The position numbers and the translations under genes were made by a program. Positions 2,071 to 41,350 of a stretch of DNA of 42,445 nt are shown piece by piece (position 1 is the stretch's first letter; every line of letters starts with the position of its first letter). This DNA comes from a virus (Duplodnaviria; Heunggongvirae; Uroviricota; Caudoviricetes). The notes below the pieces were generated by a model. The model made no database searches. It was not told the origin of the DNA and saw only the letters and a program-made list of their open reading frames with translations. The DNA lies in IMG/VR virus record IMGVR_UViG_2693429518_000021; one strand, 5' to 3'.

Positions 2071-3461
2071 GCTATACCTCTCTTTTTCATGGCATCGAGC
2101 AGGATGTCCTGCACTGTTCGTTTTGAGTTGCGCCGCTCCATCACCATTTCGTCCATAGTGTCGGCCGCAATAATGTGGTGAATAAATACCGGACGATTGT
2201 GTCCGGCCTGTATCTGCCTGGTGGGGCCGATACGTTCAATAATTTGCTGATACTGCTCCAGGTCCCACCAGTGTGAGAAAAATACCAGTATGTTTCCGCC
2301 GTCCTGCATGTTCAGACCGTGGCCCGCGCTGGCTGGGTGTGCAAAGAGAACAGGAATCTTTCCGGAATTCCAGTCGCGCAGTGTCTGTGGATCTTGGTCG
2401 AGGTGACGACCGCGAGGGAATGCTTTAAGCAAGCGTTCAAGATCGTGTTTCCAGTGATAAGCAACCAGCACAGGTGCGCCAGCTGCTTCGGTCAGTATGC
2501 TGTCCAGCGCCTGCAGTTTGGTGTCATGCAGTTCTGACCAACTTCCGGTGTCGTCTGTGTATACTGCGCCACTGGCGATTTGCAGACACTTCAGTGTCTT
2601 TGCCGCGGCGTTTGGTGCTTCGATGCCTTCGCCATTCAGCTCGAGGAACATTTCCTTTTCCATTTCACGATACTGCTGACGGGCCTTCGGCGGCATATCC
2701 ACGCGGATTACGTTATGGATGGGGTCTTTGATATCGAACCAGTCGGCCGCATCCAGCGATAGGGTCACATCGGCTAACGCTCGCTGTATTTCACCCTGTG
2801 AGTGAGCAAACGGCTCCAGTTTGGTCCAGCTCTGCCCCGGAAACTGTATCGAGTTGAACCAGCGTGAGGTAAACGCGCCGTAAGTGCGTCCGAGACGTTG
2901 CCCCTGGTCCACAAACCACGCTTGTCCCCACAAATCTACCAGGCCGTTCGGTGCTGGCGTACCGGTGAGATTTATCCAGCGCCGGACATACTTATGCGCC
3001 ACTTTGCCCAGCGCCGCCGCGCGCTTACCACCACCTCGCAGCCGGAAGGATTTTAGCTGGGTGCTTTCATCTGGAATGACAGTACCGAACGGCCATCGTT
3101 CTCCCAATTCCTCAACCAGCCAGACAAGGTTATCGTAGTTGATGGTGAACACGCTTGCGTTGCTGTTCGCCAGCGCTGCAGAGCGCGCTTTGGCGTTACC
3201 AACAATCGGCTGCACCTCAATATTACGCAGATGCCCCCATTTAACAGCTTCATCAGGCCAGGTGCTTGCTGCAACGCGTAGCGGCGCGAGGACCAGCGCG
3301 GGGCGTGTTTCTGCTCCAGCCATGAAAAGATCTTCCAGCGTGGTGAGTGTCGCTACGGTTTTACCCATTCCCATACCTGCCCAGATGTTGCAGCGCATGA
3401 TGTCGATTTCGTGGTTGATAATGAGATCTTGGTAGGGGCGAGGGATAAAGTTTTGAGGCAT
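2067..3461 (-). CDS. Superfamily-2 helicase (SNF2/DEAD-like), phage replication module
   Basis: 464 aa; Walker A GMGKT, DEST (DExx-like) box, PYQ N-terminal motif, helicase C-terminal-like region. Confidence 0.8.
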   Translation of the reverse strand: MPQNFIPRPYQDLIINHEIDIMRCNIWAGMGMGKTVATLTTLEDLFMAGAETRPALVLAPLRVAASTWPDEAVKWGHLRNIEVQPIVGNAKARSAALANSNASVFTINYDNLVWLVEELGERWPFGTVIPDESTQLKSFRLRGGGKRAAALGKVAHKYVRRWINLTGTPAPNGLVDLWGQAWFVDQGQRLGRTYGAFTSRWFNSIQFPGQSWTKLEPFAHSQGEIQRALADVTLSLDAADWFDIKDPIHNVIRVDMPPKARQQYREMEKEMFLELNGEGIEAPNAAAKTLKCLQIASGAVYTDDTGSWSELHDTKLQALDSILTEAAGAPVLVAYHWKHDLERLLKAFPRGRHLDQDPQTLRDWNSGKIPVLFAHPASAGHGLNMQDGGNILVFFSHWWDLEQYQQIIERIGPTRQIQAGHNRPVFIHHIIAADTMDEMVMERRNSKRTVQDILLDAMKKRGIA

Positions 3462-3571
3462 TATAATCTCGCAAATTTTTGCTAGTTAGAGGTCGCACCA
3501 GTTGGCCTGGCAATTTTTACTATTCACAGCGAAGGTAACCCACAGGGTTAAATGTAAGGATAAACAATAAA

Positions 3572-4501
3572 ATGAGTGAATTTGGTGGTCAGCAACCCGC
3601 ACCCCAACAAGTACTGGACTTAGGTGTTAGTACTGAGGGGGTTTTTAACGAAATAGAAATGGGGGTTCTTCAGAACGGGATCTCCTACCTTACGCAAAAT
3701 GGGCTGGCTAGGATTTGCGGGGTGCATCGCAGTAATATCGCGGATATTTCTCGAGAGTGGGAAGAGAGCTTCCGCCACGGAGTTTTCGCTCGAGGGCGTA
3801 TGGAGTTTATCAGCTCATATTTACAGCGTGAGCAATATAATGAGCCGACTCTTTATATCCCAATCAACAAAGATGGGTCAGTCCATTATGCGTACCCAGA
3901 AGTAGTCTGTATGGCTATTCTGGAGTTCTACGCATTTGTATCTCAAAGTGCTGCAACTCCTACTGCGCTACAGTTTTTCCGCGAGCTATCCCGTGCGGGT
4001 ATGCGTGGTTACATCTATACAGCGCTTGGCTACATACCTGATGACCCTTGGCGTCATTACCACTCTCGTGTGTCAATCATGCATGGGGCAAACTCGGTTC
4101 CTGCTGGACACTTCATTGTATTCAATGAAATTGCTGGTTTAATGGTAGACCTCATCCATGCTGGATTAGCAGTAAACCAGTACACTGTACCGGATATCAG
4201 TGTGGGCCAGCACTGGGCTCGCTACTGGTCTTCTTCCAACTACGATGCGACGATTGGCCCAAGACAACGCTGCCAGCACTATTACCCTGAAGAATTCAAC
4301 CAATCCGCAAGTAATCCCCAAATGGTCTATGCATACCCTGATAATGCTTTAGCTGTATTCAGGCACTGGCTTCGTGCGGTTTATTTACCAACCAAATTCC
4401 CTAAATACCTTCTGAGTAAAGCAGGGCTATTGGCTGGCGGACAAACGGCGGCGTTGCAAATTATTGATAATTTTAATAATCGTGCATTACCTAACCCATA
4501 A
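3572..4501 (+). CDS. Hypothetical protein, possible Bro-N/KilA-N-like N-terminal DNA-binding domain; function unknown
   Basis: 309-aa ORF, the only plus-strand gene inside the minus-strand replication operon; tail-to-tail with the methyltransferase (stops 2 bp apart). N-terminal stretch FNEIEMGVLQNGISYLTQNGLARICGV resembles Bro-N/AntA/KilA-N-type folds (by eye, unverified). Confidence 0.6.
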   Translation: MSEFGGQQPAPQQVLDLGVSTEGVFNEIEMGVLQNGISYLTQNGLARICGVHRSNIADISREWEESFRHGVFARGRMEFISSYLQREQYNEPTLYIPINKDGSVHYAYPEVVCMAILEFYAFVSQSAATPTALQFFRELSRAGMRGYIYTALGYIPDDPWRHYHSRVSIMHGANSVPAGHFIVFNEIAGLMVDLIHAGLAVNQYTVPDISVGQHWARYWSSSNYDATIGPRQRCQHYYPEEFNQSASNPQMVYAYPDNALAVFRHWLRAVYLPTKFPKYLLSKAGLLAGGQTAALQIIDNFNNRALPNP

Positions 4502-4503
4502 TA

Positions 4504-5517
4504 TCAACAGATGAGGTCGTATCCTGTGCATTCCATAAACGAGCGGATGAATGTTGCGGCAGCTGGTGCGACTATCGCGTTGCCGTAGGCGCGCAGTCGT
4601 CCCACTCTGGAGGTAATCCCATGAGCCAACGGGAATGTGCCGGATTCAACTGGCCGCCAGCGACCATCCCGGCAGAGGAGCCAGTCAGCATCATCCCAGC
4701 AGCTGTTAATCGTATTGGGCCGCCGAGGGTCGTTCCCCGTTTGGTATGATTGGCCGCTGCGCCCTCGCCACGAACTTTGTTGTTGTCGACCGTCGTCACT
4801 GTCGGCCATCCCGCTAATCTGGATAGCCCCGCTAAGGTTTCTAGACCGCGTTTTGTCTCCGGCTGTGGGTTTGTGTTGCAGGTTGGGGTGTACCACCCCG
4901 CCAGGTGAGCAAAATCCCGCAGGGAGCTGTGTAGCGTGTTGCCGGACGGTCGACGATCTCCAGACATCTTCCTCAATGCTATTGAGGCGCTTTCGCCACC
5001 GCTGTGGTCGCTCGCCGCTGGCATCGGCCACCCAATACGCTCTATCTCGGATATGCGGGGCACCGACGCCCGCAGCCGGAAACGGGACAAGCCCAAAGGC
5101 GTAGTCCACTGCTTCCACGTCAGTTTGTACAAGATCGAACCAGGCATTGACTCCCGCAACCTGTTCGCCAAATACCAGCTCAGGGCGTCGCTCGCTGATG
5201 AGGTGGAATAGCGCTGGCCATAGGTGCCGCTCGTCATCAAATCCAGCGCCTTTACCAGCCGAGCTGAAAGGCTGGCACGGGCAACTTCCTGTCCAGACCG
5301 GTTTGTTATCCGGCCATCCGGCCAGACGCAGAGCATAAGACCAGACGCCGATCCCGGCGAAGAAATGGCACTGTGTGAATCCGCGCAAGTCGTCTGGTGC
5401 GACATCTTCGATACTCCTTTCATCAACTTCACCCGGGGCGATATGACCCGCAGCAATAAGGTTACGCAGCCATTGTGCTGCGTTAGGGTCTATTTCGTTG
5501 TAATAGGCTCCCCGCAC
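4504..5517 (-). CDS. DNA (cytosine-5)-methyltransferase
   Basis: 337 aa with C5-MTase motifs in canonical order: motif I FFAGIG, motif [11 protein letters not shown] (catalytic Cys), motif VI FGEQV (ENV-like), motif VIII IRDRAYW, motif X AYGNAIV. Confidence 0.85.
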
Positions 5518-5810
5518 AATATCCCCTCCAGATTTTTGCTATCCAGCACCACTACGGTAAAGCCCAGCGCGCGCAGTCGTCCGTGTTCACGCAGTTGGCC
5601 GGCGCGTGGTGTCTTGCCGGGTGCTTTACATTCAACGAAAACGATACGACCACCGGGTAGCAGAACAATGCGATCTGGTACCGAGCGGCGACCGGGAGAT
5701 ATAAACTTAAAGGCCACTCCGCCAGCTTTTTTCACTTCAGCGACGAGGTGCTTTTCGATAAGGCTTTCACGTTCATAGGCCATCTGAATCCCACTCTTCA
5801 AAAAGCACAT
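5490..5810 (-). CDS. VRR-NUC domain nuclease (PD-(D/E)xK)
   Basis: 106 aa; VPDRIVLL ... IVFVECKAPGK gives the D ... E-x-K signature; typical partner of phage PolA/helicase modules. Real start may be the internal MAYERE Met. Confidence 0.6.
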   Translation of the reverse strand: MCFLKSGIQMAYERESLIEKHLVAEVKKAGGVAFKFISPGRRSVPDRIVLLPGGRIVFVECKAPGKTPRAGQLREHGRLRALGFTVVVLDSKNLEGILCGEPITTK

Positions 5811-6289: not shown

Positions 6290-8353
6290 TTAATCCTTAC
6301 GGTAGTGGTACGCCTCAAAACCGCCAGCGTTCAGTGGGATATCTGGCGCCCATTCGGGGTTAGTGGAGAGAAGCGCGGAAAGCGCTTTATCGTTGAAATC
6401 TTCTGTGTCAGGTGATTCGGTGATCACCTCGTCGTGTACCGTCAGCACAATGCTGTAACCGGCATCTTCGATAAGCGGCATGTTTCCGGCCAGAACGTCG
6501 CGGGCGGCCGCCTGGGTGACGTTCTCCACCAGCTTTCCGCCGTAGGTTTTGAGTCGTTGCCATTTACGCGAATAAGAGTTAACACCCATGTAGGTGATAT
6601 TCCCTTGTTCGATAACCGGAGACGGGTAGCATACAGCGCGTCCGGATGGTAGCTGTATGCGCAGCCACGCGCCATCGCGGCGGATTTTAAGATAACCGCA
6701 ATACAATGTTTTTTGCGGTGTGGCGATTGCTGTGCGGACGGTGCACTCCAGTTCGTACCAGAAATCACAGGTCGCGGGATGCGCCCGGCGCCAGAGACGT
6801 TTAAGTGAGTCGCAGGCGATAAATACCCGTTCAGAAAGCCCGTAGGTCGATTTACGTTTAACCGATTCGTCGTACCAGCTTTTCGCCTCGCGGATAACAT
6901 CGCGGGGAATGTTTGGCAGTGCGGCGTTCGCCAGCCCGTCGAGATCGAGACCGTAAACCAGAGCAAAAGTGATGAAAGCCGATACACCTCCTCCATAACC
7001 CAGACCGAGTTCCATGACTTTACCGATCTGACGCATGTGTTTATCAACATCATCTGGTGCAATATCGAAAGCTTTTGCATACGCCAGTTTATATAAGTCC
7101 GGACCCGTTCCGGCGTCGTACTCTCTGAATGCATTCAGTTTCCATTCTTCTCCCGCCAGCCATGCCAGCATACGGCCTTCAATGTTCGACAAGTCACTTA
7201 CCACCAGCTTTTTGCCTGTTGGCGCGATAATGCAGCCACGTAACGCTGAACTGGTTAGTTCCATGATATTGTCAAACAGCAGGTCTGCACATCCGGCTTT
7301 CAGTGCTTCGATGCCTTCGTCTATTTGTTCCTGTTTTAGTGAAGGGCGGGGAAGGTTCTGGGGCTGGAATAGCCGTCCGGCCCAACGACCGGTACGTGAC
7401 GCCCCGCAGAACTGTAGCGTACCGCGTAAGCGCCCGTCGTGGCTTACGCCTTTCATCAGTGCCTTGTATTTACTGGTGCTGGTAGTACTGGCCTGCAGGC
7501 GGATAGCCAGCAGTTCTTTCACGGCAGATGGTAAATCGGGGTCGGCAATACGACGTTCCAGAGTACTGCGTTGCATGTCTGGTAGCTCCACACCGTAGGA
7601 TTCAACAATGTGCTTAATCAACGCGTCTCGTTGTGTGGCTGCCTGCACTTCGCCATCAGTCATTTCCTGTGTACGCTTTGCCAGGCGCTTTTGTTCCTGG
7701 TCTACCGCGTCGATCGCAGCGCGTGCGAGTTCCACGTCCATGCAGACGCCCCGGTCATTGATCTGCTGATCACGATGCCAGAGCGCCAGTTCTGTCCCCT
7801 GATAATTCCACTTCGGCAGACGTTTATAGACTTCGCGCATTGCCTCGATATCCAGTCCGGCGTAAGCAACAAAGCGCCGCCATTCTTCCGGGTGGGTTTT
7901 GCTGGTGGCCCGGCGCAGTTTGCTGTTTTTCGGGCGTGGCTTACAGAACAGCTGGATCAGCGCTTTACCTTCTTTGTCCTTCGCTTTGTCTTGCGGGACG
8001 CCTAGTACTTCGCAGAGTTCCCCCAGAGCCCCCGGGAGACCGTGCGCCAGCGCCTGCACCATCGTGTCGCGCCAACGTTCGACTGGCGGTGCCAGTCGCG
8101 GCATTGCATAACGCAGGACGGTGCGGTCGAAGTGAGAGTTATGAAAATAAAGCAGGGTTTCAGGGGCTGCGATTGCTTCGTATAAGCCGTGTGGAATACC
8201 ACCACCGGCAGTGATATCCCATACGTTTACTGGCCCGTCGTTGATAGCCCATGCGAACAGCATCACTTCAACGCCTTCGGCATACGCATGGGTACCGTTC
8301 GTAATAGGGATTTCGCAATAGGTTTCCAGGTCGCCCCATAGTATATTGGACAT
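6290..8353 (-). CDS. DNA polymerase, family A (with 3'-5' exonuclease domain)
   Basis: 687 aa; exonuclease DxE (WGDLETY), polymerase motif A ([19 protein letters not shown]-like), motif B ([16 protein letters not shown]), motif C (VHDE). Confidence 0.85.
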
Positions 8354-28529: not shown

Positions 28530-29675
28530 ATGGCACAGGGCTTGCCTGTATCAAACGTTGTTAATGTTGATGTGATCATGTCGCCGCGTGCAGCATCAGG
28601 GCGAAATTTTGGTGCATTACTCATTCTCGGCCCGTCCACAATCATTCCGGTAAGTGAGCGCATTCGCCGTTATTCTGCCGCGGAAGATATTGGAAAAGAT
28701 TTTGGCGTGGAATCACCAGAATATAAGGCTGCGCAGGTGTTTTTCTCTCAATCACCGAAACCTCAGGAGGTTTTTGTTGGTCGTTGGGTGAAAACGAAGG
28801 GAGACAGCGAACAGGCCACGCCTGAGACGCTGGAGCAGGCTGTGAATGCCATGCTTGATTATACTTCATGGTATGGGCTGGGGATTGCAGACGATGAAGA
28901 TATTCAGGATGCAGACTGGCTGAAAGTGGCTGCGGCGATCGAATCCTCTTCTGTAAGCCGTATTCTGGCGATTACGACAAGCGATGAGAAATGCCTGCAG
29001 ACTGCATCCAGCGATGATTTGGCATCAAAACTGAAAACCGCCGGATATTCACGCAGTTTTATTCAGTATTCATCGGGTAATAAATACGCTGCGTTATCTG
29101 CATTTGGCCGGGCATTCACGGTTAATTTCAATGGCAGTAATACCGCGATTACGCTCAAGTTTAAGCAGGAGCCGGGTATCGGGTATGAAACACTGACAGT
29201 CAGCCAGGCATCGGCACTTGATGCAAAAAACTGCAATGTATTCGTGTACTACCAGAATGATACGGCTATCCTCCAGCAGGGAGTGATGGCTAACGGCGAT
29301 TTCTTTGATGAACGCCACGGCCTGGACTGGTTACAGAATTATGTGCAGACCAACCTCTATAACCTGCTTTATACCAGCACCACGAAAGTTCCCCAGACTG
29401 AAGCCGGTATTACCCGACTGTTATCAAATGTTGAAAAATCACTGGATCAGGCCGTTCAGAATGGACTGATTGCTCCGGGCGTATGGAACGGGGGCGACCT
29501 TGGTCAGTTGTCATCAGGTGACACACTGCCCAAAGGTTATTACGTATACGCTCAGCCGCTGGATGAACAGGCTCAATCAGAACGTGAAGCCCGTAAGGCT
29601 CCGGTGATTCAGGCTGCAATAAAACTTGCAGGCGCGGTTCATTACGCTGACGTACAGATTAACGTTGTTCGCTAA
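28530..29675 (+). CDS. Tail sheath protein
   Basis: 381-aa ORF followed in order by a ~146-aa tube-sized gene, a frameshifting chaperone and a tape-measure gene, the conserved contractile-tail gene order. Confidence 0.6.
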
Positions 29676-29685
29676 GGGGAAGTGA

Positions 29686-30126
29686 ATGTCTACCTATTCT
29701 TTTATGGATGTCACTGCGACGCTGACCGGGCCGACAGGTTCGATTGACCTCGGGTACGGTTCGGCAAGTTCTGAAGAGGGGATTGTGGTTGCGATGGGCG
29801 GTCCTAAAAACACCATGACCATCGGTGCTGATGGCGAAGTGATGCACAGTCTCCATGCAGATAAAAGCGGGACGATTACCGTTAACCTTCTGAAGACATC
29901 ACCGACAAATAAAAAATTGTCGCTGGCGTATAACGCACAGAGCCAGTCTTCTGCCACATGGGGGAATAACGTTATCGTGATCCGCAACAAGGTCAGCGGC
30001 GACATCATCACGGCACGCAGTGTTGCGTTCCAGAAACAACCGGATAACGCCAACGCTAAAACCGGTAATACGATGCCGTGGGTGTTTGACTGCGGCAAGA
30101 TTGACCAGGTTCTCGGGGAGTTTTAA
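29686..30126 (+). CDS. Tail tube protein
   Basis: 146-aa ORF between sheath and chaperone. Confidence 0.55.
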   Translation: MSTYSFMDVTATLTGPTGSIDLGYGSASSEEGIVVAMGGPKNTMTIGADGEVMHSLHADKSGTITVNLLKTSPTNKKLSLAYNAQSQSSATWGNNVIVIRNKVSGDIITARSVAFQKQPDNANAKTGNTMPWVFDCGKIDQVLGEF

Positions 30127-30129
30127 TGC

Positions 30130-30582
30130 ATGGAATTCGAAATTAAAGGCGTGAAATATCGCACGGCAAAACTCAGCGTTTTTGACCAGCTGAAAGTGAC
30201 CCGCAAACTTCTGCCGGTGCTGGCAGGAATGATGTCAGATTTCGGGAGTATTCGCTCCCGTTTGCCTGCTGACGGCAAAATCGACACCGTGAAATTCGAA
30301 CAGTTAAAACCGGTGTTTGAAACCATGCTCCCGCGTATCGCTGAGGAACTGTCTTCCCTGACCGAAGATGACACCGATGCGATTATTCATCCCTGTCTTG
30401 CGGTGGTATCGCGGCGTCATATGGACGGATGGGTGCCGGTATTTACCCAGGGCGAACTGATGTTTGATGATATTGACTTGCTGGTCATGCTGCAGCTGGT
30501 GGCGCGGGTGGTCGCCGATTCGCTGGGAAATTTTTTGCCTACACCCCTTACCAGCACGACGCAGAGCCTGCAACAAGGCTGA
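30130..30582 (+). CDS. Tail assembly chaperone (short form)
   Basis: 150-aa ORF immediately upstream of the tape-measure gene, with a slippery site near its 3' end. Confidence 0.6.
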   Translation: MEFEIKGVKYRTAKLSVFDQLKVTRKLLPVLAGMMSDFGSIRSRLPADGKIDTVKFEQLKPVFETMLPRIAEELSSLTEDDTDAIIHPCLAVVSRRHMDGWVPVFTQGELMFDDIDLLVMLQLVARVVADSLGNFLPTPLTSTTQSLQQG

Positions 30583-30770
30583 CGTTTAACAGCCTGCCGG
30601 ACGGGCTGTCCTACCTTCTCAATCCGGTTGACGCCGGGTTAATTCCTTATACAGCACTTAAAGATGGCTCTGTCGATTTGTATGACATTGCTCTCTTGAA
30701 TGACCATCTGGCGGTAAAAGCGGATAACCAGCGACGCATTGAGAAATGGAGAGAGGATAATGAACGCTGA
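30528..30770 (+). other. Programmed -1 frameshift site (A_AAT_TTT_TTG, 30528..30537) and -1-frame extension of the chaperone to stop at 30768..30770
   Basis: Zero-frame codons GGA AAT TTT TTG give overlapping heptamers A_AAT_TTT and T_TTT_TTG; the -1 frame is open from 30537 to the TGA at 30768 (AYTPYQHDAEPATRLTFNSLPDGLSYLLNPVDAGLIPYTALKDGSVDLYDIALLNDHLAVKADNQRRIEKWREDNER), overlapping the tape-measure start. Confidence 0.5.
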
Positions 30771-32748
30771 AACTATTAAAGATTTCCTCGTCTCGCTTGG
30801 CTTCAGTGTGGATGATGCAGGAGCGAAAAAGTTCGGTTCTGTCCTCGCCGGTACAACTGCAAATGTCATCAAAATGGGGCTGGCTGTTGAAGGAGCTGCG
30901 TTGTCCGTGGTGGCCTTCACGGCTAAGATCGCCTCCGGCCTGGATAATCTTTACTGGGCGTCACAGCGCACCGGCGCGACAGTCCAGGGAATTCAGTCTA
31001 TTGGCTATGCGGTTTCGCAGGTTGGCGGCAGCGTGGACGCTGCGCGATCTTCTCTGGAAAGCCTATCCCGGTTTATTCGTAACAATCCCGGTGCAGAAGG
31101 CTTTCTGAATCGCCTGGGCGTACAGACCCGTGATGCCAGCGGTAACATGCGTGACATGGCCGCTATTTTTACGGGCGTTGGACAGAAACTCAGCAGCATG
31201 CCGTATTACCGGGCTAACCAGTATGCGCAGATGCTGGGCATTGACGAAAATACCCTTATGGCGATGCGCCGGGGTGTGGGTGGCTTCTCCGGGCAGTACA
31301 GCGCAATGGCGAAAGCTATCGGCTTCAATGCTGACGAGGCGGCCAGAAGCTCCAACAAATTTATGACCTCCCTGCGTGAGTTTGGCGCGATGGCAGGCAT
31401 GGCCCGTGACAAAATCGGCTCTAATCTTGCGGGGGGGCTTGCGGGTTCGCTGGACACCCTGCGCCGCCATATCCTGGACAACTTCCCTCGTATCGAGCAG
31501 ACCCTGACGAAAGCCATAAAAGGCATTCTGGCGCTCGGGGATATTATCGGGCGGCTGTTCTTCAGACTGATTGAGGGGACATCAGGCCTTATCACCTGGT
31601 GGCAATCGCTGGATAAGCAAACGCGGGAGTTGATCTCGCTGTTTGGCGCACTGACGATTGCGCTGCGCATTCTGAACAGTACGTTCTGGATGTCGCCGAT
31701 TGGCCTCATTACCGCGCTGGCGGCGGGTATTGCCCTCCTGTGGGAGGACTATCAGACCTGGAAGGAAGGCGGCGACAGCCTGATTGACTGGGGCAAGTGG
31801 AAACCGGAGGTCGATGCCGCGCTGAAGATGGTTCGTGACCTTAAAACGACCGTTAACGACCTGGTGAAAGCGCTGGCGAAACTGCTCAATATTGACCCCA
31901 AATCATGGTCCCTGAAGTGGGATTTCAGCAACTTCATCGACCAGATGGGCGAATTCAGCAAAATGCTGAACATGATCGCCGACCTGCTCAACGCTATCAA
32001 AGATGGCCGCTGGGCTGATGCCGTCAGCATCGGCAAACAGATACTTAATCAGGGCAGCGAAAATCCGTCAGCGATGCCGATGGTTACAGACAGCGCTAAC
32101 AGTACTGCCGACTGGATTAAAGAGCACTGGGGATTCGATCCCCGCAGTGTGGGCCGGACGGTACGCGGCTGGTTTGGTGATGATGAGCCGGAACAACATG
32201 CACAGGCTACGAAACGAGGAGAACGGAATAACAATCCGGGAAACCTTAATTTTGCTGGTCAGGCAGGGGCTTCTCTTGAACGCCCGGGCGGGCGATTTGC
32301 CAGATTTGAAACTGCTTTTGATGGATTACGGGCTCTTGCTCGTCAGTTAATGCTGTACGCCGGACGGGGAATAAACAGTGTGGAGAAAATTATCTCTACC
32401 TGGGCACCTGCGTCTGATAATAACAACACAACTGCGTATATCAGGGCTGTATCGCAACGACTGGGAGTGGATCCCCGGGCTGCCCTGAATATGAGCGATC
32501 CGCAAACCATGTCAGCATTGATGAGCAGCATTATCCAGCATGAGAATGGAAGAAATATCTATTCTCGGGAGCTGATTAATAAGGCTGCCGTGGCGGGAAT
32601 TAGTGGCAAAGTGACAGAGGTTAACCAGCAAAATACCTACCACATTTACGGTGGTGGAGATCCGCACGCTGTCGGTAATGAGGTTGCACGTCGGCAACAG
32701 TCTGCAAATGCTCAGGTCATGCGAAGTAATCAGGTGAGGGTGGGTTAG
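30760..32748 (+). CDS. Tail tape measure protein
   Basis: Largest tail-module ORF, after the frameshifting chaperone; ATG 30760 preceded by GGAGAGAGG; long Ala/Leu/Gly-rich helical regions. Confidence 0.7.
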   Translation: MNAETIKDFLVSLGFSVDDAGAKKFGSVLAGTTANVIKMGLAVEGAALSVVAFTAKIASGLDNLYWASQRTGATVQGIQSIGYAVSQVGGSVDAARSSLESLSRFIRNNPGAEGFLNRLGVQTRDASGNMRDMAAIFTGVGQKLSSMPYYRANQYAQMLGIDENTLMAMRRGVGGFSGQYSAMAKAIGFNADEAARSSNKFMTSLREFGAMAGMARDKIGSNLAGGLAGSLDTLRRHILDNFPRIEQTLTKAIKGILALGDIIGRLFFRLIEGTSGLITWWQSLDKQTRELISLFGALTIALRILNSTFWMSPIGLITALAAGIALLWEDYQTWKEGGDSLIDWGKWKPEVDAALKMVRDLKTTVNDLVKALAKLLNIDPKSWSLKWDFSNFIDQMGEFSKMLNMIADLLNAIKDGRWADAVSIGKQILNQGSENPSAMPMVTDSANSTADWIKEHWGFDPRSVGRTVRGWFGDDEPEQHAQATKRGERNNNPGNLNFAGQAGASLERPGGRFARFETAFDGLRALARQLMLYAGRGINSVEKIISTWAPASDNNNTTAYIRAVSQRLGVDPRAALNMSDPQTMSALMSSIIQHENGRNIYSRELINKAAVAGISGKVTEVNQQNTYHIYGGGDPHAVGNEVARRQQSANAQVMRSNQVRVG

Positions 32749-33335
32749 TGGATATTCTCTCTACACTTTTTCATCAGCAGAGCAGAAAAATAGGAATGAT
32801 TGTTCCCTGTGTTGTTATTTCAGAGAAGCATACAGATATGCTTGAAATAACAGAGCATCCGGTAGAGGTCGGGGCCGCTGTCGCTGATCATGCCTATAAA
32901 AAACCGTCAGAAGTGGTGATGGAGGTTGGTTTCGCCGGTGGTGGCGCATTGCTGGATTTTGCCAGTAACCTGACGGCTACCAGCCTGCTCGGCCTGAGTC
33001 CTCAGCAGACGTATCAGGAGCTACTGGATCTGCAGGAAAGCCGTATCCCCTTCGATGTGGTAACCGGTAAACGACTGTACAGCAACATGTTGATCCGGGC
33101 GCTGGAAGTGACGACGGACAAGACAACCGAAAACGTCCTGTCCGCCGTCCTCACCCTGAGGGAGGTCCTTATCTCCCGGACACAGCAGATTTCCGTCGCG
33201 GATAAAACCAACATGAAGGAAGGGGCCAGCACCTCGGCGGTACAGAACAGCGGCAACAAAACCACCAAGCCTCCAGATACTTCACTGCTGAAAAGCATCA
33301 CGGGTAACGTGGCGTCATTACTGGGGGGCGGCTAA
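32748..33335 (+). CDS. Hypothetical tail/baseplate protein
   Basis: 195-aa ORF, start overlapping the tape-measure stop. Confidence 0.4.
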   Translation: MDILSTLFHQQSRKIGMIVPCVVISEKHTDMLEITEHPVEVGAAVADHAYKKPSEVVMEVGFAGGGALLDFASNLTATSLLGLSPQQTYQELLDLQESRIPFDVVTGKRLYSNMLIRALEVTTDKTTENVLSAVLTLREVLISRTQQISVADKTNMKEGASTSAVQNSGNKTTKPPDTSLLKSITGNVASLLGGG

Positions 33336-36958: not shown

Positions 36959-38157
36959 TGGCTCTGAACCTTGATTCTCTCGGTTTATCTGCAAAGGTAA
37001 CCGCGGAGGGGATCAGTGCGCCTGATTATCAGACGATACTCAGCACCCTGATTAGCTATTTTCAGCAGATTTATGGCAGTGATGCCTACCTCGAACCGGA
37101 TAGTAAAGACGGCCAGATGGTGGCTCTGATGGCGCTGGCGATTCATGATGCCAATAATACTGCGATAACTGTCTACAACTGTTTTTCACCGGCAACCGGC
37201 TATGGGGCCGCACTGACCAGTAACGTGAAAATAAATGGTATTTCACGTAAAGGCGCGACGAATTCTACGGTTGATTTGCTTCTTACAGGAACTGCCGGAA
37301 CAACCATCATTAATGGCAGCGTGAAAGACAGTAATAGTGTGATATGGCGTTTGCCTGCTTCAGTGGTGGTCGGCGTGGATGGTACAGTGATGGCGACCGC
37401 AACATGTTCCGTCAGTGGTGCAGTGGCGGCGCTGGCTGGAACTATCACTGAAATTAATACGCCAACCCGTGGCTGGGTTTCGGTAACTAATCCTGCTGCG
37501 GCTACTGTTGGCTCTCCGGCAGAAACTGATGCGGAGTTACGTATCCGCCAGTCGCAAAGTGTTGCGTTGCCATCAATAACCCCATTTGAAGCACTGGATG
37601 GTGCTGTTTCTAATGTTACCGGTGTAACCCGCCACAAACTCTATGAAAACGATACTGGTTCGGAGGACGGTAACGGGTTACCGCCACACTCTGTTGCTGT
37701 AATTGTGGATGGCGGTGATGTGATGGATATTGCTCAGGCTATCAGAGGGAATAAAGGCCAGGGGACAGCCACTCACGGTACAACATCCGTTACGGTTCCG
37801 GATAAATACGGCAATCCCCATGTAATCAAATTCTCGCGTTCCAGTGATGTGCCTGTTTATGCCCGGATTAAATTAAAAGTTTTTACGGGTTATACCTCAC
37901 AGATAGGGCAGCAGATCCAGCAGGCTATTTCCGACTATATCAATAGTCTGATGATTGGTGATTCGGTCCTTTTAAGTCGCATTTACTCACCGGCGAATCT
38001 TGGCGTGGTGAGTGGCGGGAATGCACGCTATTACGATATTCAGGAACTGACGATTGGGAAATCTCCGGGGGCTTTGTCGTCATCAAACATTGATATCAGA
38101 TACAACGAATCTGCGTCCTGTACCCCGGAAAATATCGTTATAACGGTGGAGTCATGA
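36958..38157 (+). CDS. Baseplate J-like protein
   Basis: 399-aa ORF in the V-W-J-I-fibre order; its last ~140 codons lie in the duplicated module. Confidence 0.6.
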   Translation: MALNLDSLGLSAKVTAEGISAPDYQTILSTLISYFQQIYGSDAYLEPDSKDGQMVALMALAIHDANNTAITVYNCFSPATGYGAALTSNVKINGISRKGATNSTVDLLLTGTAGTTIINGSVKDSNSVIWRLPASVVVGVDGTVMATATCSVSGAVAALAGTITEINTPTRGWVSVTNPAAATVGSPAETDAELRIRQSQSVALPSITPFEALDGAVSNVTGVTRHKLYENDTGSEDGNGLPPHSVAVIVDGGDVMDIAQAIRGNKGQGTATHGTTSVTVPDKYGNPHVIKFSRSSDVPVYARIKLKVFTGYTSQIGQQIQQAISDYINSLMIGDSVLLSRIYSPANLGVVSGGNARYYDIQELTIGKSPGALSSSNIDIRYNESASCTPENIVITVES

Positions 38158-38834
38158 GCAAATACACCGAACTAATCACGAACTACCACGCCACCAAACC
38201 TAAATTTCTTGCACATGTTGATCTGATGACCCGGCCGCTTATTGATGTTGCGGCGGCCACCAGAGGGCTGATTACTGCATTTGATATTGACTCTGCGGTT
38301 GGTGTGCAACTTGACATTCTGGGATTGTGGATCGGACGTAGCCGTGTTGTCAGCCAGCCTATCTCAGGTGTTTATTTCAGCTGGGATACCGACGGGCTTG
38401 GATATGATCAGGGTGTATGGCAGGGACCATACGATCCTGATTCCGGATACATGTACCTCAGCGATGAAACTTATCGTGTCATCCTTAAAGCGAAGATTGC
38501 GATTAATAACTGGGACGGACGGAATGATTCGCTTCCGGCAATTCTTGACGCGGCAACAGCAGGATCCGGGCTGCGAATGCAGATAGTCGATAACCAGGAC
38601 ATGACGATATCGGTCTGGGTCTTTCCTGATACTGATATTTCAGATGTATCGCGTGAGTTAATTGCGGCAATTAAACAGGGGTATCTCACAGTAAAAGCCG
38701 CCGGGGTATGGGCGGGGGGCATTGAAACTCCTTCGGTGGAAACCCCATCGGAAGGCTCAAAATTTTTTGGTTTTGATATGGATAACGAATTCATCAGTGG
38801 TTTTGATGTAGGAGCATGGGGAGTATTACTCTGA
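38154..38834 (+). CDS. Baseplate/tail protein I-like (copy 1)
   Basis: 226-aa ORF; translation identical to 39972..40652. Confidence 0.5.
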
Positions 38835-39643
38835 TGGCGAAAAATGACTTTAAAGCGTTTGCAACTGATCGAAATGCCAATGTTATGTCGCAGGAGGAAT
38901 GGGAAGCGTTGCCTGCGCTTTTATCCGGATTTACAGCAGGGAAAGCATCCAGTGCGCAGGTGAACAAAGCCATTCGACAGGCCAGCTTTATTGCTGCAGC
39001 TCTGGCCCAGTTTGTAAGTGACAAAACGCAACGGGATGTGCTTGATAATGGTGATCTGCCCGGTTTTGTTGAATTGCTGGGATCGGGGTTTGCTGTTGAA
39101 TACCTGAGCCGCAAGAATCCGTTTGGCGATATCAAATCGGATGGCACTGTGCAAACGGCTCTCGAAAACCTTGGTTTGGGAGAAGGTTCTGCATTACCTG
39201 TTGGTGTGCCTGTTCCGTGGCCTTCAGTCACACCGCCAACAGGCTGGCTGAAATGCAACGGTGCGGCTTTTTCTGCTGAAGAATACCCGGAACTGGCAAA
39301 GGCTTACCCGACCAATAAATTGCCTGATTTACGCGGTGAATTTATTCGTGGCTGGGATGACGGTCGCGGGATTGATACTGGTCGCGCTTTGCTTAATTGG
39401 CAGCCACACACAATTTTGGACCATGCACACTATATGGAATTATGGACAGGGGACGGACTCGCCGCAGGAAGTGCACGGGAAGGAGTAAACCCAGGAATAC
39501 TGGCTACATACGGTGACGGGGGAATAGTTAAAACGGACGAACCCGGTCTTAAAAGGCTATCAGAGGGAATAAAGGCCAGGGGACAGCCACTCACGGTACA
39601 ACATCCGTTACGGTTCCGGATAAATACGGCAATCCCCATGTAA
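38834..39643 (+). pseudogene. Tail fibre gene, copy 1: constant N-terminus plus truncated collar-domain variable cassette, fused out of frame to the duplicated J fragment
   Basis: First ~117 codons identical to fibre copy 2; from 39186 a different C-terminal cassette with tail-collar-like motifs ([23 protein letters not shown]); the frame crosses the junction at 39553/39554 and ends after ~30 unrelated codons. Confidence 0.5.
39159..39184 (+). other. hix/gix/cix-like DNA invertase crossover site, copy 1 (CTCTCGAAAACC-TT-GGTTTGGGAGAA)
   Basis: 26-bp imperfect palindrome with the AAACC-NN-GGTTT core typical of Hin/Gin/Cin sites (from memory); copy identity ends 1 bp after the site. Confidence 0.55.
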
Positions 39644-39975
39644 TCAAATTCTCGCGTTCCAGTGATGTGCCTGTTTATGCCCGGATTAAATTAAAAGTTT
39701 TTACGGGTTATACCTCACAGATAGGGCAGCAGATCCAGCAGGCTATTTCCGACTATATCAATAGTCTGATGATTGGTGATTCGGTCCTTTTAAGTCGCAT
39801 TTACTCACCGGCGAATCTTGGCGTGGTGAGTGGCGGGAATGCACGCTATTACGATATTCAGGAACTGACGATTGGGAAATCTCCGGGGGCTTTGTCGTCA
39901 TCAAACATTGATATCAGATACAACGAATCTGCGTCCTGTACCCCGGAAAATATCGTTATAACGGTGGAGTCATGA
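39554..39975 (+). pseudogene. 3' fragment of the J-like baseplate gene (duplicate, no start)
   Basis: Translation of 39667..39975 is identical to the last 102 residues of the J-like protein; the fragment begins at the duplication junction. Confidence 0.6.
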
Positions 39976-40652
39976 GCAAATACACCGAACTAATCACGAA
40001 CTACCACGCCACCAAACCTAAATTTCTTGCACATGTTGATCTGATGACCCGGCCGCTTATTGATGTTGCGGCGGCCACCAGAGGGCTGATTACTGCATTT
40101 GATATTGACTCTGCGGTTGGTGTGCAACTTGACATTCTGGGATTGTGGATCGGACGTAGCCGTGTTGTCAGCCAGCCTATCTCAGGTGTTTATTTCAGCT
40201 GGGATACCGACGGGCTTGGATATGATCAGGGTGTATGGCAGGGACCATACGATCCTGATTCCGGATACATGTACCTCAGCGATGAAACTTATCGTGTCAT
40301 CCTTAAAGCGAAGATTGCGATTAATAACTGGGACGGACGGAATGATTCGCTTCCGGCAATTCTTGACGCGGCAACAGCAGGATCCGGGCTGCGAATGCAG
40401 ATAGTCGATAACCAGGACATGACGATATCGGTCTGGGTCTTTCCTGATACTGATATTTCAGATGTATCGCGTGAGTTAATTGCGGCAATTAAACAGGGGT
40501 ATCTCACAGTAAAAGCCGCCGGGGTATGGGCGGGGGGCATTGAAACTCCTTCGGTGGAAACCCCATCGGAAGGCTCAAAATTTTTTGGTTTTGATATGGA
40601 TAACGAATTCATCAGTGGTTTTGATGTAGGAGCATGGGGAGTATTACTCTGA
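39972..40652 (+). CDS. Baseplate/tail protein I-like (copy 2)
   Basis: Identical to 38154..38834. Confidence 0.5.
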
Positions 40653-41350
40653 TGGCGAAAAATGACTTTAAAGCGTTTGCAACTGATCGAAATGCCAATG
40701 TTATGTCGCAGGAGGAATGGGAAGCGTTGCCTGCGCTTTTATCCGGATTTACAGCAGGGAAAGCATCCAGTGCGCAGGTGAACAAAGCCATTCGACAGGC
40801 CAGCTTTATTGCTGCAGCTCTGGCCCAGTTTGTAAGTGACAAAACGCAACGGGATGTGCTTGATAATGGTGATCTGCCCGGTTTTGTTGAATTGCTGGGA
40901 TCGGGGTTTGCTGTTGAATACCTGAGCCGCAAGAATCCGTTTGGCGATATCAAATCGGATGGCACTGTGCAAACGGCTCTCGAAAACCTTGGTTTGGGAG
41001 AAGCGGCGAAAAGGGATGTGGGTACAGGAGAAAATCAGATACCGGATATGTCAGCCTGGAAAAGAAATCCGAGTTCTAATCGCTGGAGAAAATTGCCTGA
41101 TGGAACCATCATTCAAATGGGAATATCAGCATCAGGGCCATTAGGCTCACCTGTAAATATCACCCTGCCGATATCTTTCAGCAATACCAATTATTGTGTT
41201 GTTGCATCGTACGATAATGCACGGTCAGGTGTGTCAACAATGGTTAGTTTTGCAGCATTACCTGTTTCACCATCGCAATTTTCCCTGATGTCATCTGTGA
41301 CTGAGCAAGGAGTAAATCCTTTTGCTTACTGGATTGCTTTTGGAGATTGA
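40652..41350 (+). CDS. Tail fibre protein (constant N-terminus plus variable cassette in current orientation)
   Basis: ATG 40652 overlaps the I-like stop (TGATG); sequence diverges from copy 1 after the gix-like site at 41003. Confidence 0.6.
40977..41002 (+). other. hix/gix/cix-like DNA invertase crossover site, copy 2; probable left boundary of the invertible segment
   Basis: Identical to the site at 39159..39184; lies at the constant/variable junction of the fibre gene. Confidence 0.55.

Follow-up and report, generated by a model that had tools for sequence, protein, structure and literature searches.

Predicted -1 frameshifting, as in lambda G/GT, in a tail chaperone gene of a temperate Escherichia coli myovirus prophage

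In the tail chaperone gene of a temperate Escherichia coli prophage, ribosomes very probably undergo a programmed shift to the -1 frame like that of lambda G/GT, as judged from the sequence of the locus and of its relatives. The gene lies in a 42,445-nucleotide stretch of Caudoviricetes DNA (IMG/VR record IMGVR_UViG_2693429518_000021), which is called the window here. An overlapping pair of open reading frames (ORFs) is found on its + strand between the tail tube and tape-measure genes. The zero frame (30130..30582) encodes a chaperone of 150 aa and 16.8 kDa, here called G, while the -1 frame continues to 30770 and encodes an extension, here called T (30534..30770; 78 codons plus TGA). The predicted GT fusion, join(30130..30534, 30534..30770), would be a protein of 213 aa and 24.1 kDa that is reached only by frameshift. 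Each frame matches its own protein families. G matches Pfam Phage_TAC_15 (PF21822; E=4.9e-31, 108.3 bits against a gathering cut-off of 22, residues 6-138) and phrog_1688 (3.6e-65), and the -1-frame translation of 30534-30767 matches Pfam DUF6889 (PF21829; E=1.2e-20, 73.4 bits against a gathering cut-off of 23.9) and phrog_4364 (1.8e-23).

The element that carries the chaperone gene is a temperate E. coli myovirus prophage with a contractile tail. The window is the reverse complement of a prophage of ~40 kb located next to yfhL in E. coli ETEC H10407, to which it is 99.88% identical across 39 kb. In the chaperone region, the window is 99.4% identical to four phages that were induced or isolated, vB_EcoM-606R2, -689R2, -611R5 and -683R1. 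Of 5426 complete E. coli genomes, 368 carry the chaperone locus. On the + strand, the tail module begins with a sheath gene of 381 aa (28530..29675; Pfam DUF3383, 1e-100; phrog_205 tail sheath, 1.4e-135) and a tube gene of 146 aa directly 5' of the chaperone (29686..30126; Pfam KPP10_Orf10, PF11681, also listed as Phage_Tube_PhiTE, 8.8e-61; NCBIfam gp105_phage_fam). After the 150-codon ORF comes the tape-measure gene, followed by Dit-like, plug and hub baseplate genes. The tape-measure gene (30760..32748) encodes 662 aa with a C-terminal lytic domain (phrog_2276, 9.3e-284; phrog_873 endolysin over residues 474-650). Its ATG is preceded by a purine-rich, Shine-Dalgarno-like sequence, GGAGAGAGGA (30748..30757), which sits within the 3' end of the T reading frame and is conserved in relatives. 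The baseplate genes match Pfam families named after the phages Pam3 and E217.

The candidate slip site is the run G_GGA_AAT_TTT_TTG at 30525..30537, which covers chaperone codons 131-135 in the zero frame: CTG (30523), GGA (30526), AAT (30529), TTT (30532) and TTG (30535). Three overlapping heptamers of the form X_XXY_YYZ are in phase with these codons, G_GGA_AAT (30525-30531), A_AAT_TTT (30528-30534) and T_TTT_TTG (30531-30537). The first-pass annotation had placed the last two in the zero frame, and direct reading finds both in phase; its list was incomplete only in that the third in-phase heptamer, G_GGA_AAT, had been overlooked. Its distance of 45 nt to the chaperone stop also stands when measured from the end of A_AAT_TTT to the zero-frame TGA at 30580. 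No stop interrupts the -1 frame between 30477 and its TGA at 30768-30770, a span of 97 codons, so that the two frames overlap over 30477-30582 and the slippery heptamers lie inside this overlap. A shift on T_TTT_TTG would leave 77 codons in the -1 frame, the number given originally, and a shift on A_AAT_TTT would leave 78. As had been claimed, the -1-frame TGA overlaps the tape-measure start; it lies 8 nt past the ATG at 30760, and the overlap between T and the tape-measure gene is 11 nt. The +1 frame was rejected as an extension, as it closes after 19 codons at 30587-30589. The program-made list of ORFs has no entry for T because the earliest ATG, GTG or TTG in the -1 frame is a TTG at 30678, which bears out the earlier explanation that the extension was missed for want of a start codon.

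The earlier annotation had proposed checking whether related phages keep the slip site and the -1 ORF, and conservation of both is found at every distance examined. Among 20 diverse phages, all 20 carry a -1 ORF, 75-95 codons long, whose end falls at the tape-measure gene or just within it. These phages are labelled as Escherichia, Yersinia, Salmonella, Klebsiella, Hafnia, Citrobacter, Providencia, Edwardsiella, Acinetobacter, Bordetella, Ralstonia and Burkholderia phages, and one is labelled Elizabethkingia. Across 19 of them, identity to the window is 28-85% for the T part and 28-89% for the N-terminal domain. The zero-frame tails of the 20 phages are variable in length and 10-53% identical. 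A tblastn search of 50,697 phage records gave a similar picture: the zero-frame match stops at residue 134-135 in 38 of 40 records, and in most of those 38 the -1-frame match starts at the same nucleotide. The homology of G to its relatives thus ends at residue 135, the slip site, and its final 15 residues are unconserved.

We also scanned species-dereplicated genomes using only the N-terminal domain as the query, a design that is unbiased with respect to the -1 ORF. A 14-sequence alignment proved too diverse as a query, and the scan was rerun with five enteric sequences, yielding 33 usable loci. The slip site and the -1 ORF are both kept in ~30 of the 33; the three exceptions (L111, L123 and L125) resemble decayed prophages. 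When these 33 genomes are combined with the 20 phages, 52 of the 53 loci have xxT_TTT at the homologous pair of codons, and 29 of the 53 have the exact sequence [C/T]TG GGA AAT TTT TTG. Where A_AAT has been lost (to AGT, GAT or GGT AAT), TTT follows as the next codon and T_TTT_TTT is thereby restored. From these alignments, the TTT that follows a broken A_AAT looks like a compensatory pattern.

More distant viral contigs (n=80) carry T in the -1 phase in 78 cases, in frame in two and in the +1 phase in none. The 78 -1-phase loci gave 67 distinct overlaps, 64 of which contain a canonical in-phase heptamer, almost always X_XXT_TTN. TTTTTTT was counted 26 times, CCCTTTT 18, TTTTTTG 10, TTTTTTC 10, CCCTTTC 6 and AAATTTT 5. 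The remaining three overlaps show G_GAT_TTT instead, and a few relatives carry only G_GAT_TTT, T_TCT_TTT or G_CCT_TTT, in which the P-site triplet is non-canonical. Counting all loci that were classified or read directly, the T domain is in the -1 phase in 129 of 131, in frame in 2 of 131 and in the +1 phase in 0 of 131, and nearly all of the 131 have an X_XXT_TTN heptamer at the homologous codon. Throughout the family, the A-site codon is one for Phe, UUU (or UUC), and the P site is mostly a homotriplet. The -1 arrangement with an in-phase heptamer was found from Enterobacterales to Acinetobacter, Burkholderia, Bordetella and Ralstonia. Additionally, an exhaustive, profile-free search with the fused sequence returned 1358 cluster representatives at 50% identity, most of them 130-160 aa long with a match that stops near the slip position.

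Selection on the two frames was read from an alignment of 14 diverged enteric relatives, in which 30526-30536 is invariant. When entropy is split by codon position in the -1 frame, the values are 0.72/0.69/1.30 for the overlap after the slip site and 0.74/0.63/1.41 beyond the zero-frame stop, the same periodicity. From 30537 on, variability is maximal at the third position of the -1 frame and minimal at the wobble position of the zero frame. The alignment therefore indicates that, from the slip site on, purifying selection acts on the -1 frame instead of the zero frame. Because this periodicity is present from 30537 on, -1 translation would start at the slippery run rather than further downstream.

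In E. coli, A_AAU_UUU shifts at 0.070% with no stimulator, 0.355% with IS911 stimulators and 11.4% with the IS3 pseudoknot; the corresponding values are 0.118%, 0.247% and 0.765% for U_UUU_UUG and 0.069%, 0.112% and 1.05% for G_GGA_AAU (PMC4066793, Table S3). The reporter background was 0.055%, so that the unstimulated A_AAU_UUU value lies near it, and H_HHU_UUY heptamers rank among the best -1 motifs in E. coli (PMC4066793). Because of the comparative data and these published efficiencies, we favor A_AAU_UUU over T_TTT_TTG with moderate confidence as the likeliest shift site. A ribosomal shift on T_TTT_TTG or G_GGA_AAT, instead of or besides A_AAT_TTT, is possible but appears the less probable course, and tandem heptamers may be additive. 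All three heptamers are in phase, and distant relatives repeatedly show X_XXT_TTT_TTG doublets (such as CCCTTTT with TTTTTTG), but only the Phe codon at the A_AAT_TTT position is common to the whole family, as the xxT_TTT that 52 of 53 loci retain. While Bordetella phage IFTN9 retains only G_GGA_AAT, Acinetobacter and Burkholderia relatives carry ATT or ATC after TTT and therefore have no second heptamer. The published efficiencies cut both ways: unstimulated U_UUU_UUG (0.118%) is no worse than A_AAU_UUU (0.070%), whereas stimulated U_UUU_UUG and G_GGA_AAU are ~10-fold weaker than A_AAU_UUU in E. coli (PMC4066793). The choice of heptamer alters the predicted junction, which would read ...LGNF-FAYTPYQHD... 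for A_AAU_UUU and ...GNFL-AYTPY... for T_TTT_TTG. The predicted tryptic junction peptide is VVADSLGNFFAYTPYQHDAEPATR for a shift on G_GGA_AAU or A_AAU_UUU and VVADSLGNFLAYTPYQHDAEPATR for a shift on U_UUU_UUG.

Searches for a stimulatory element at the site were negative. Folding of 30538-30640 gave z=-1.43 with the first 20 nt unpaired, and no hairpin or pseudoknot was found 5-9 nt past the heptamer. RNAalifold found no conserved downstream structure in 14 relatives (two trivial pairs), and an Rfam search of the site returned no family, only a sub-threshold miRNA match. A G-rich GGGTGG lies ~15 nt upstream (30507-30512) and codes for conserved ARVV residues, so that by inspection it is inseparable from protein constraint. 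Since unstimulated A_AAU_UUU is near the reporter background and no stimulator was found, efficiency at the chaperone could be very low.

A second explanation is that the DUF6889 ORF is a small gene in its own right, expressed from its own start (CTG at 30606) or by coupling or re-initiation near the G stop. In its favor, PGAP annotates a 54-aa protein, several GenBank records call stand-alone ORFs of 50-63 aa, and gp60 of BgManors32 starts at a GTG that overlaps the upstream stop. Against this, the -1 frame has no ATG, GTG or TTG before 30678, and no promoter-like site was found for the T ORF. The called starts also vary among relatives and cut off upstream conserved residues (FxRTPY and SLPDG), and the -1-frame periodicity sets in with the slip site, which lies 70 nt before the CTG. 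Lastly, fusions of G and T in a single ORF are known in a sister lineage. A separate gene is therefore very improbable. The RefSeq/PGAP model in question, a "DUF6889 family protein" of 54 aa with a CTG start that maps to 30606..30770 of the window, leaves out the conserved SLPDG motif and the FxxTPY segment, both of which lie before its start, and we judge it to be a truncated mis-call of the T part.

It is likewise highly improbable that the fusion is made by transcriptional slippage, with one U inserted on the T6 run. There is a run of six T at 30531-30536, and one public assembly has T7 here, giving an in-frame fusion. However, programmed transcriptional realignment has been described for A runs >7 or T runs >8 (PMC3711429), and T6 falls below this threshold. 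The same -1 architecture is also found in relatives with only T4 (Acinetobacter and Burkholderia) or no run (Bordetella), and it is the phase of the heptamer, not the length of the run, that is conserved.

A heptamer with an open -1 frame is by itself only suggestive, as the bare pattern is not rare. The window has 87 ORFs that reach 100 aa or more; their last 60 codons contain 27 in-frame heptamers, and seven ORFs other than the chaperone combine an in-phase heptamer with a -1 frame that stays open for at least 30 codons beyond the stop. Four of these seven were mapped on the H10407 annotation: 4637-5104, 5224-5778 and 7610-8005 are antisense to annotated genes, and in 32748-33335 the -1 frame runs into the next gene. 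The chaperone signal is significant because of its position, the Pfam matches in both frames and the comparative data. A functionless coincidence has a negligible probability: heptamers with open -1 frames do arise by chance elsewhere in the window, but the -1 frame here matches DUF6889 at E=1.2e-20, and across >100 diverged loci the -1 phase and the slip site are retained and the -1 frame is under selection, so that the comparative data effectively refute it.

The favored reading, a programmed -1 ribosomal frameshift, has annotated counterparts in phages of other hosts. Klebsiella phage Mulock (MN098327) carries a joined CDS annotated as "tape measure chaperone frameshift product" (CPT_Mulock_014/015) at the same gene position; its slip sequence, GGGAAATTTTTTG, is identical to that of the window, and identity in the two frames is 60% and 62%. 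Burkholderia phage Magia (NC_070954) has an annotated frameshift product (gp16/gp15), also at the same gene position, with C_CCT_TTT at the homologous codon and 28% and 37% identity in the two frames. A programmed translational frameshift was identified in Magia, as stated in its paper (PMC7883833). The Mulock genome announcement makes no mention of the frameshift, although the GenBank record annotates it. In both phages the annotated frameshift is, as here, a predicted one. In contrast, it is unannotated in the E. coli prophage and in near-identical isolates such as vB_EcoM-606R2. We found no paper that uses the term "DUF6889", and NCBIfam has no model for the G part or the T part.

The class to which the chaperone would belong is widely conserved among long-tailed phages (PMC5009743). 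In lambda, gpG is accompanied by gpGT, which arises when ribosomes shift to the -1 frame at G_GGA_AAG (Levin, Hendrix & Casjens 1993; Xu, Hendrix & Duda 2004, 2013, 2014; via PMC5009743). The likeness consists in an overlapping ORF pair between the major tail and tape-measure genes and a low-level -1 shift that yields a long form (PMC5009743). All features of a lambda G-T-type frameshift, as proposed in the first-pass annotation, that lend themselves to computation were found at the chaperone locus; the fusion protein itself is predicted from them. The two systems differ in that the window chaperone has no detectable sequence similarity to that of lambda (its only Pfam matches at E<=0.01 are Phage_TAC_15 and DUF6889), in that Phe UUU takes the place of Lys AAG in the A site, and in that the window phage is a myovirus with sheath and tube while lambda is a siphovirus. 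P2 E/E+E' is similar in having a contractile tail, a chaperone gene pair beside the tape-measure gene and a -1 shift, but the protein families were unrelated in the searches run. The efficiency in P2 is reported to be 2-3-fold different from that in lambda (PMC5009743). With the dnaX and IS911/IS3 sites, the window site shares an X_XXZ_ZZN heptamer and, as predicted, tandem tRNA re-pairing. Stimulation at the dnaX and IS911/IS3 sites comes from a Shine-Dalgarno-like element ~10-14 nt before the heptamer, a hairpin or pseudoknot 5-9 nt after it, or both; at the window site no conserved downstream structure was found.

The slippage itself, its efficiency, the heptamer used and the binding partners are what we infer in the following scheme. 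Most ribosomes would read 30130-30582 and release G (150 aa), while a minority would slip back one base on G_GGA_AAU_UUU_UUG. In the likeliest slip, the P-site tRNA-Asn, paired with AAU, would re-pair to AAA, and the A-site tRNA-Phe, paired with UUU, would again find UUU. The slipped ribosomes would then read the -1 frame to the TGA at 30768 and release GT (213 aa). By analogy with lambda, G would be in excess and GT a minor product. The N-terminal domain common to both might coat or bind the tape-measure protein, and the rarer C-terminal T domain (DUF6889) might recruit the tube protein, with the tail polymerizing to the correct length. Again as in lambda, neither G nor GT would be expected to end up in the virion. 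AlphaFold2 modeling of a natural in-frame variant (P0003) with an 80-sequence alignment gave a poor monomer model (pLDDT 43.9, pTM 0.27), and a sequence search of the PDB found nothing (E=0.78).

Natural fusions of G and T in a single ORF occur in a sister lineage. Seven of them, 190-210 aa long, are among the best 150 of the 1358 cluster representatives. We read four of the fusion loci (L137-L140), in which the chaperone comes after the tape-measure gene and the order is TMP, GT, Dit-like and plug. The four loci are rich in GC (0.60-0.65 in L137 and L138), and the junction of L137 and L138 is TTC TTC with no slippery sequence. The natural fusions provide independent support for G and T on one polypeptide.

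We regard the chaperone frameshift as real and ordinary; it is a textbook mechanism, and joined CDSs are annotated in Mulock and Magia. Its practical value is mainly one of annotation: in this E. coli prophage group, G and T should be given as one CDS joined by a -1 frameshift. PGAP, in the RefSeq records listed, makes T a separate "DUF6889 family protein" (with a CTG start in ETEC H10407), and older records name the T-part ORF "NTP pyrophosphohydrolase". On the present comparison, DUF6889 itself would be the frameshift-dependent, C-terminal (T-like) domain of Phage_TAC_15 chaperones in those myoviruses whose baseplate genes hit the Pam3- and E217-named Pfam families.

Two broader readings are jointly put forward only tentatively. 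The first is that X_XXU_UUY slippage occurs family-wide with no RNA stimulator, and the second is that the in-frame sister lineage makes GT only. If the first is true, the Phage_TAC_15 and DUF6889 family (>1300 clusters at 50% identity) would shift unstimulated on a Phe A-site codon; as a signal of this sort is close to background in the reporter data, this would imply either an unrecognized stimulator, such as the nascent peptide or tandem heptamers, or a very low G:GT requirement. If the second is true, the high-GC sister lineage would contradict the lambda-derived rule that an excess of free G is required.

In the RefSeq (PGAP) annotation of the prophage of E. coli ETEC strain H10407, the region corresponding to window positions 30606-30770 is given as a separate gene that starts at CTG and encodes a 'DUF6889 family protein'. 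Homologous fragments are named 'NTP pyrophosphohydrolase' in older GenBank records. Both calls appear to be mis-annotations of T, the -1-frame extension of the tail assembly chaperone gene G. Three genes in H10407's copy of the window's prophage are also labelled pseudogenes by RefSeq: a frameshifted DNA polymerase gene, an SNF2-related protein gene with an internal stop and a frameshifted recombinase family protein gene.

Within the fetched loci, the CTGGGAAA(T)nG pattern at the slip site carries a run of six T residues (T6) in 102 occurrences other than that of one public assembly, a Logan contig from SRR23924998 (L136, position ~1600), where the run is replaced by T7. The additional T places G and T in one frame and yields a 213-aa fusion protein (P0003, ...LGNFFAYTPY...). 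This variant may reflect an error in sequencing the homopolymer, or it may be a mutant that occurs naturally and makes only the GT fusion. In the loci from Enterobacter sp. R1 (L111), Izhakiella australiensis (L123) and an Arsenophonus MAG (L125), the -1 ORF is cut short, continues into unrelated sequence or is broken past the slip site, and these loci look like decaying prophages.

The tape-measure protein (window 30760-32748) carries a C-terminal lytic domain at residues ~474-650. This domain matches both the endolysin family phrog_873 (3.2e-49) and the tail injection transglycosylase family phrog_7182, and relatives carry the annotation 'lytic transglycosylase' or 'SLT domain protein'. The Dit-like gene (32748-33335) has an in-phase G_GGG_GGC heptamer at 33323-33329, 12 nt 5' of its stop, where the -1 frame coincides with the reading frame of the plug gene that follows (ATG at 33335). 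Because the plug gene's own ATG overlaps the Dit-like stop, the heptamer is probably coincidental.

Further along the tail region, we found a direct duplication whose two copies (37736-39186 and 39554-41003) are spaced 1818 nt apart. A DUF2612 gene lies entirely within the duplicated segment (38154-38834 and 39972-40652), which also takes in the 3' part of a baseplate-J-like gene and the 5' part of a tail-fibre gene. The two copies do not differ in their first 300 nt; one copy is a 100% match to the H10407 segment and the other lies within a 99.88% alignment. The duplication is missing from the H10407 prophage, which is elsewhere 99.9% identical to the window, and could be real or an assembly artefact.

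Among the relatives outside the window, a high-GC sister lineage joins Phage_TAC_15 and DUF6889 within one ORF (L137:1038-1664, L138:2501-3133, L139:2959-3594 and L140:~2960-3591). Junction DNA was read in L137 and L138, and neither contains a slippery heptamer at the G-T junction, which reads TTC TTC. The gene order in this lineage is tape measure, GT, Dit-like, plug, with GT 3' of the tape-measure gene rather than 5'. Seven of the best 150 cluster representatives have the single-ORF G+T architecture. This lineage would produce the long form only.
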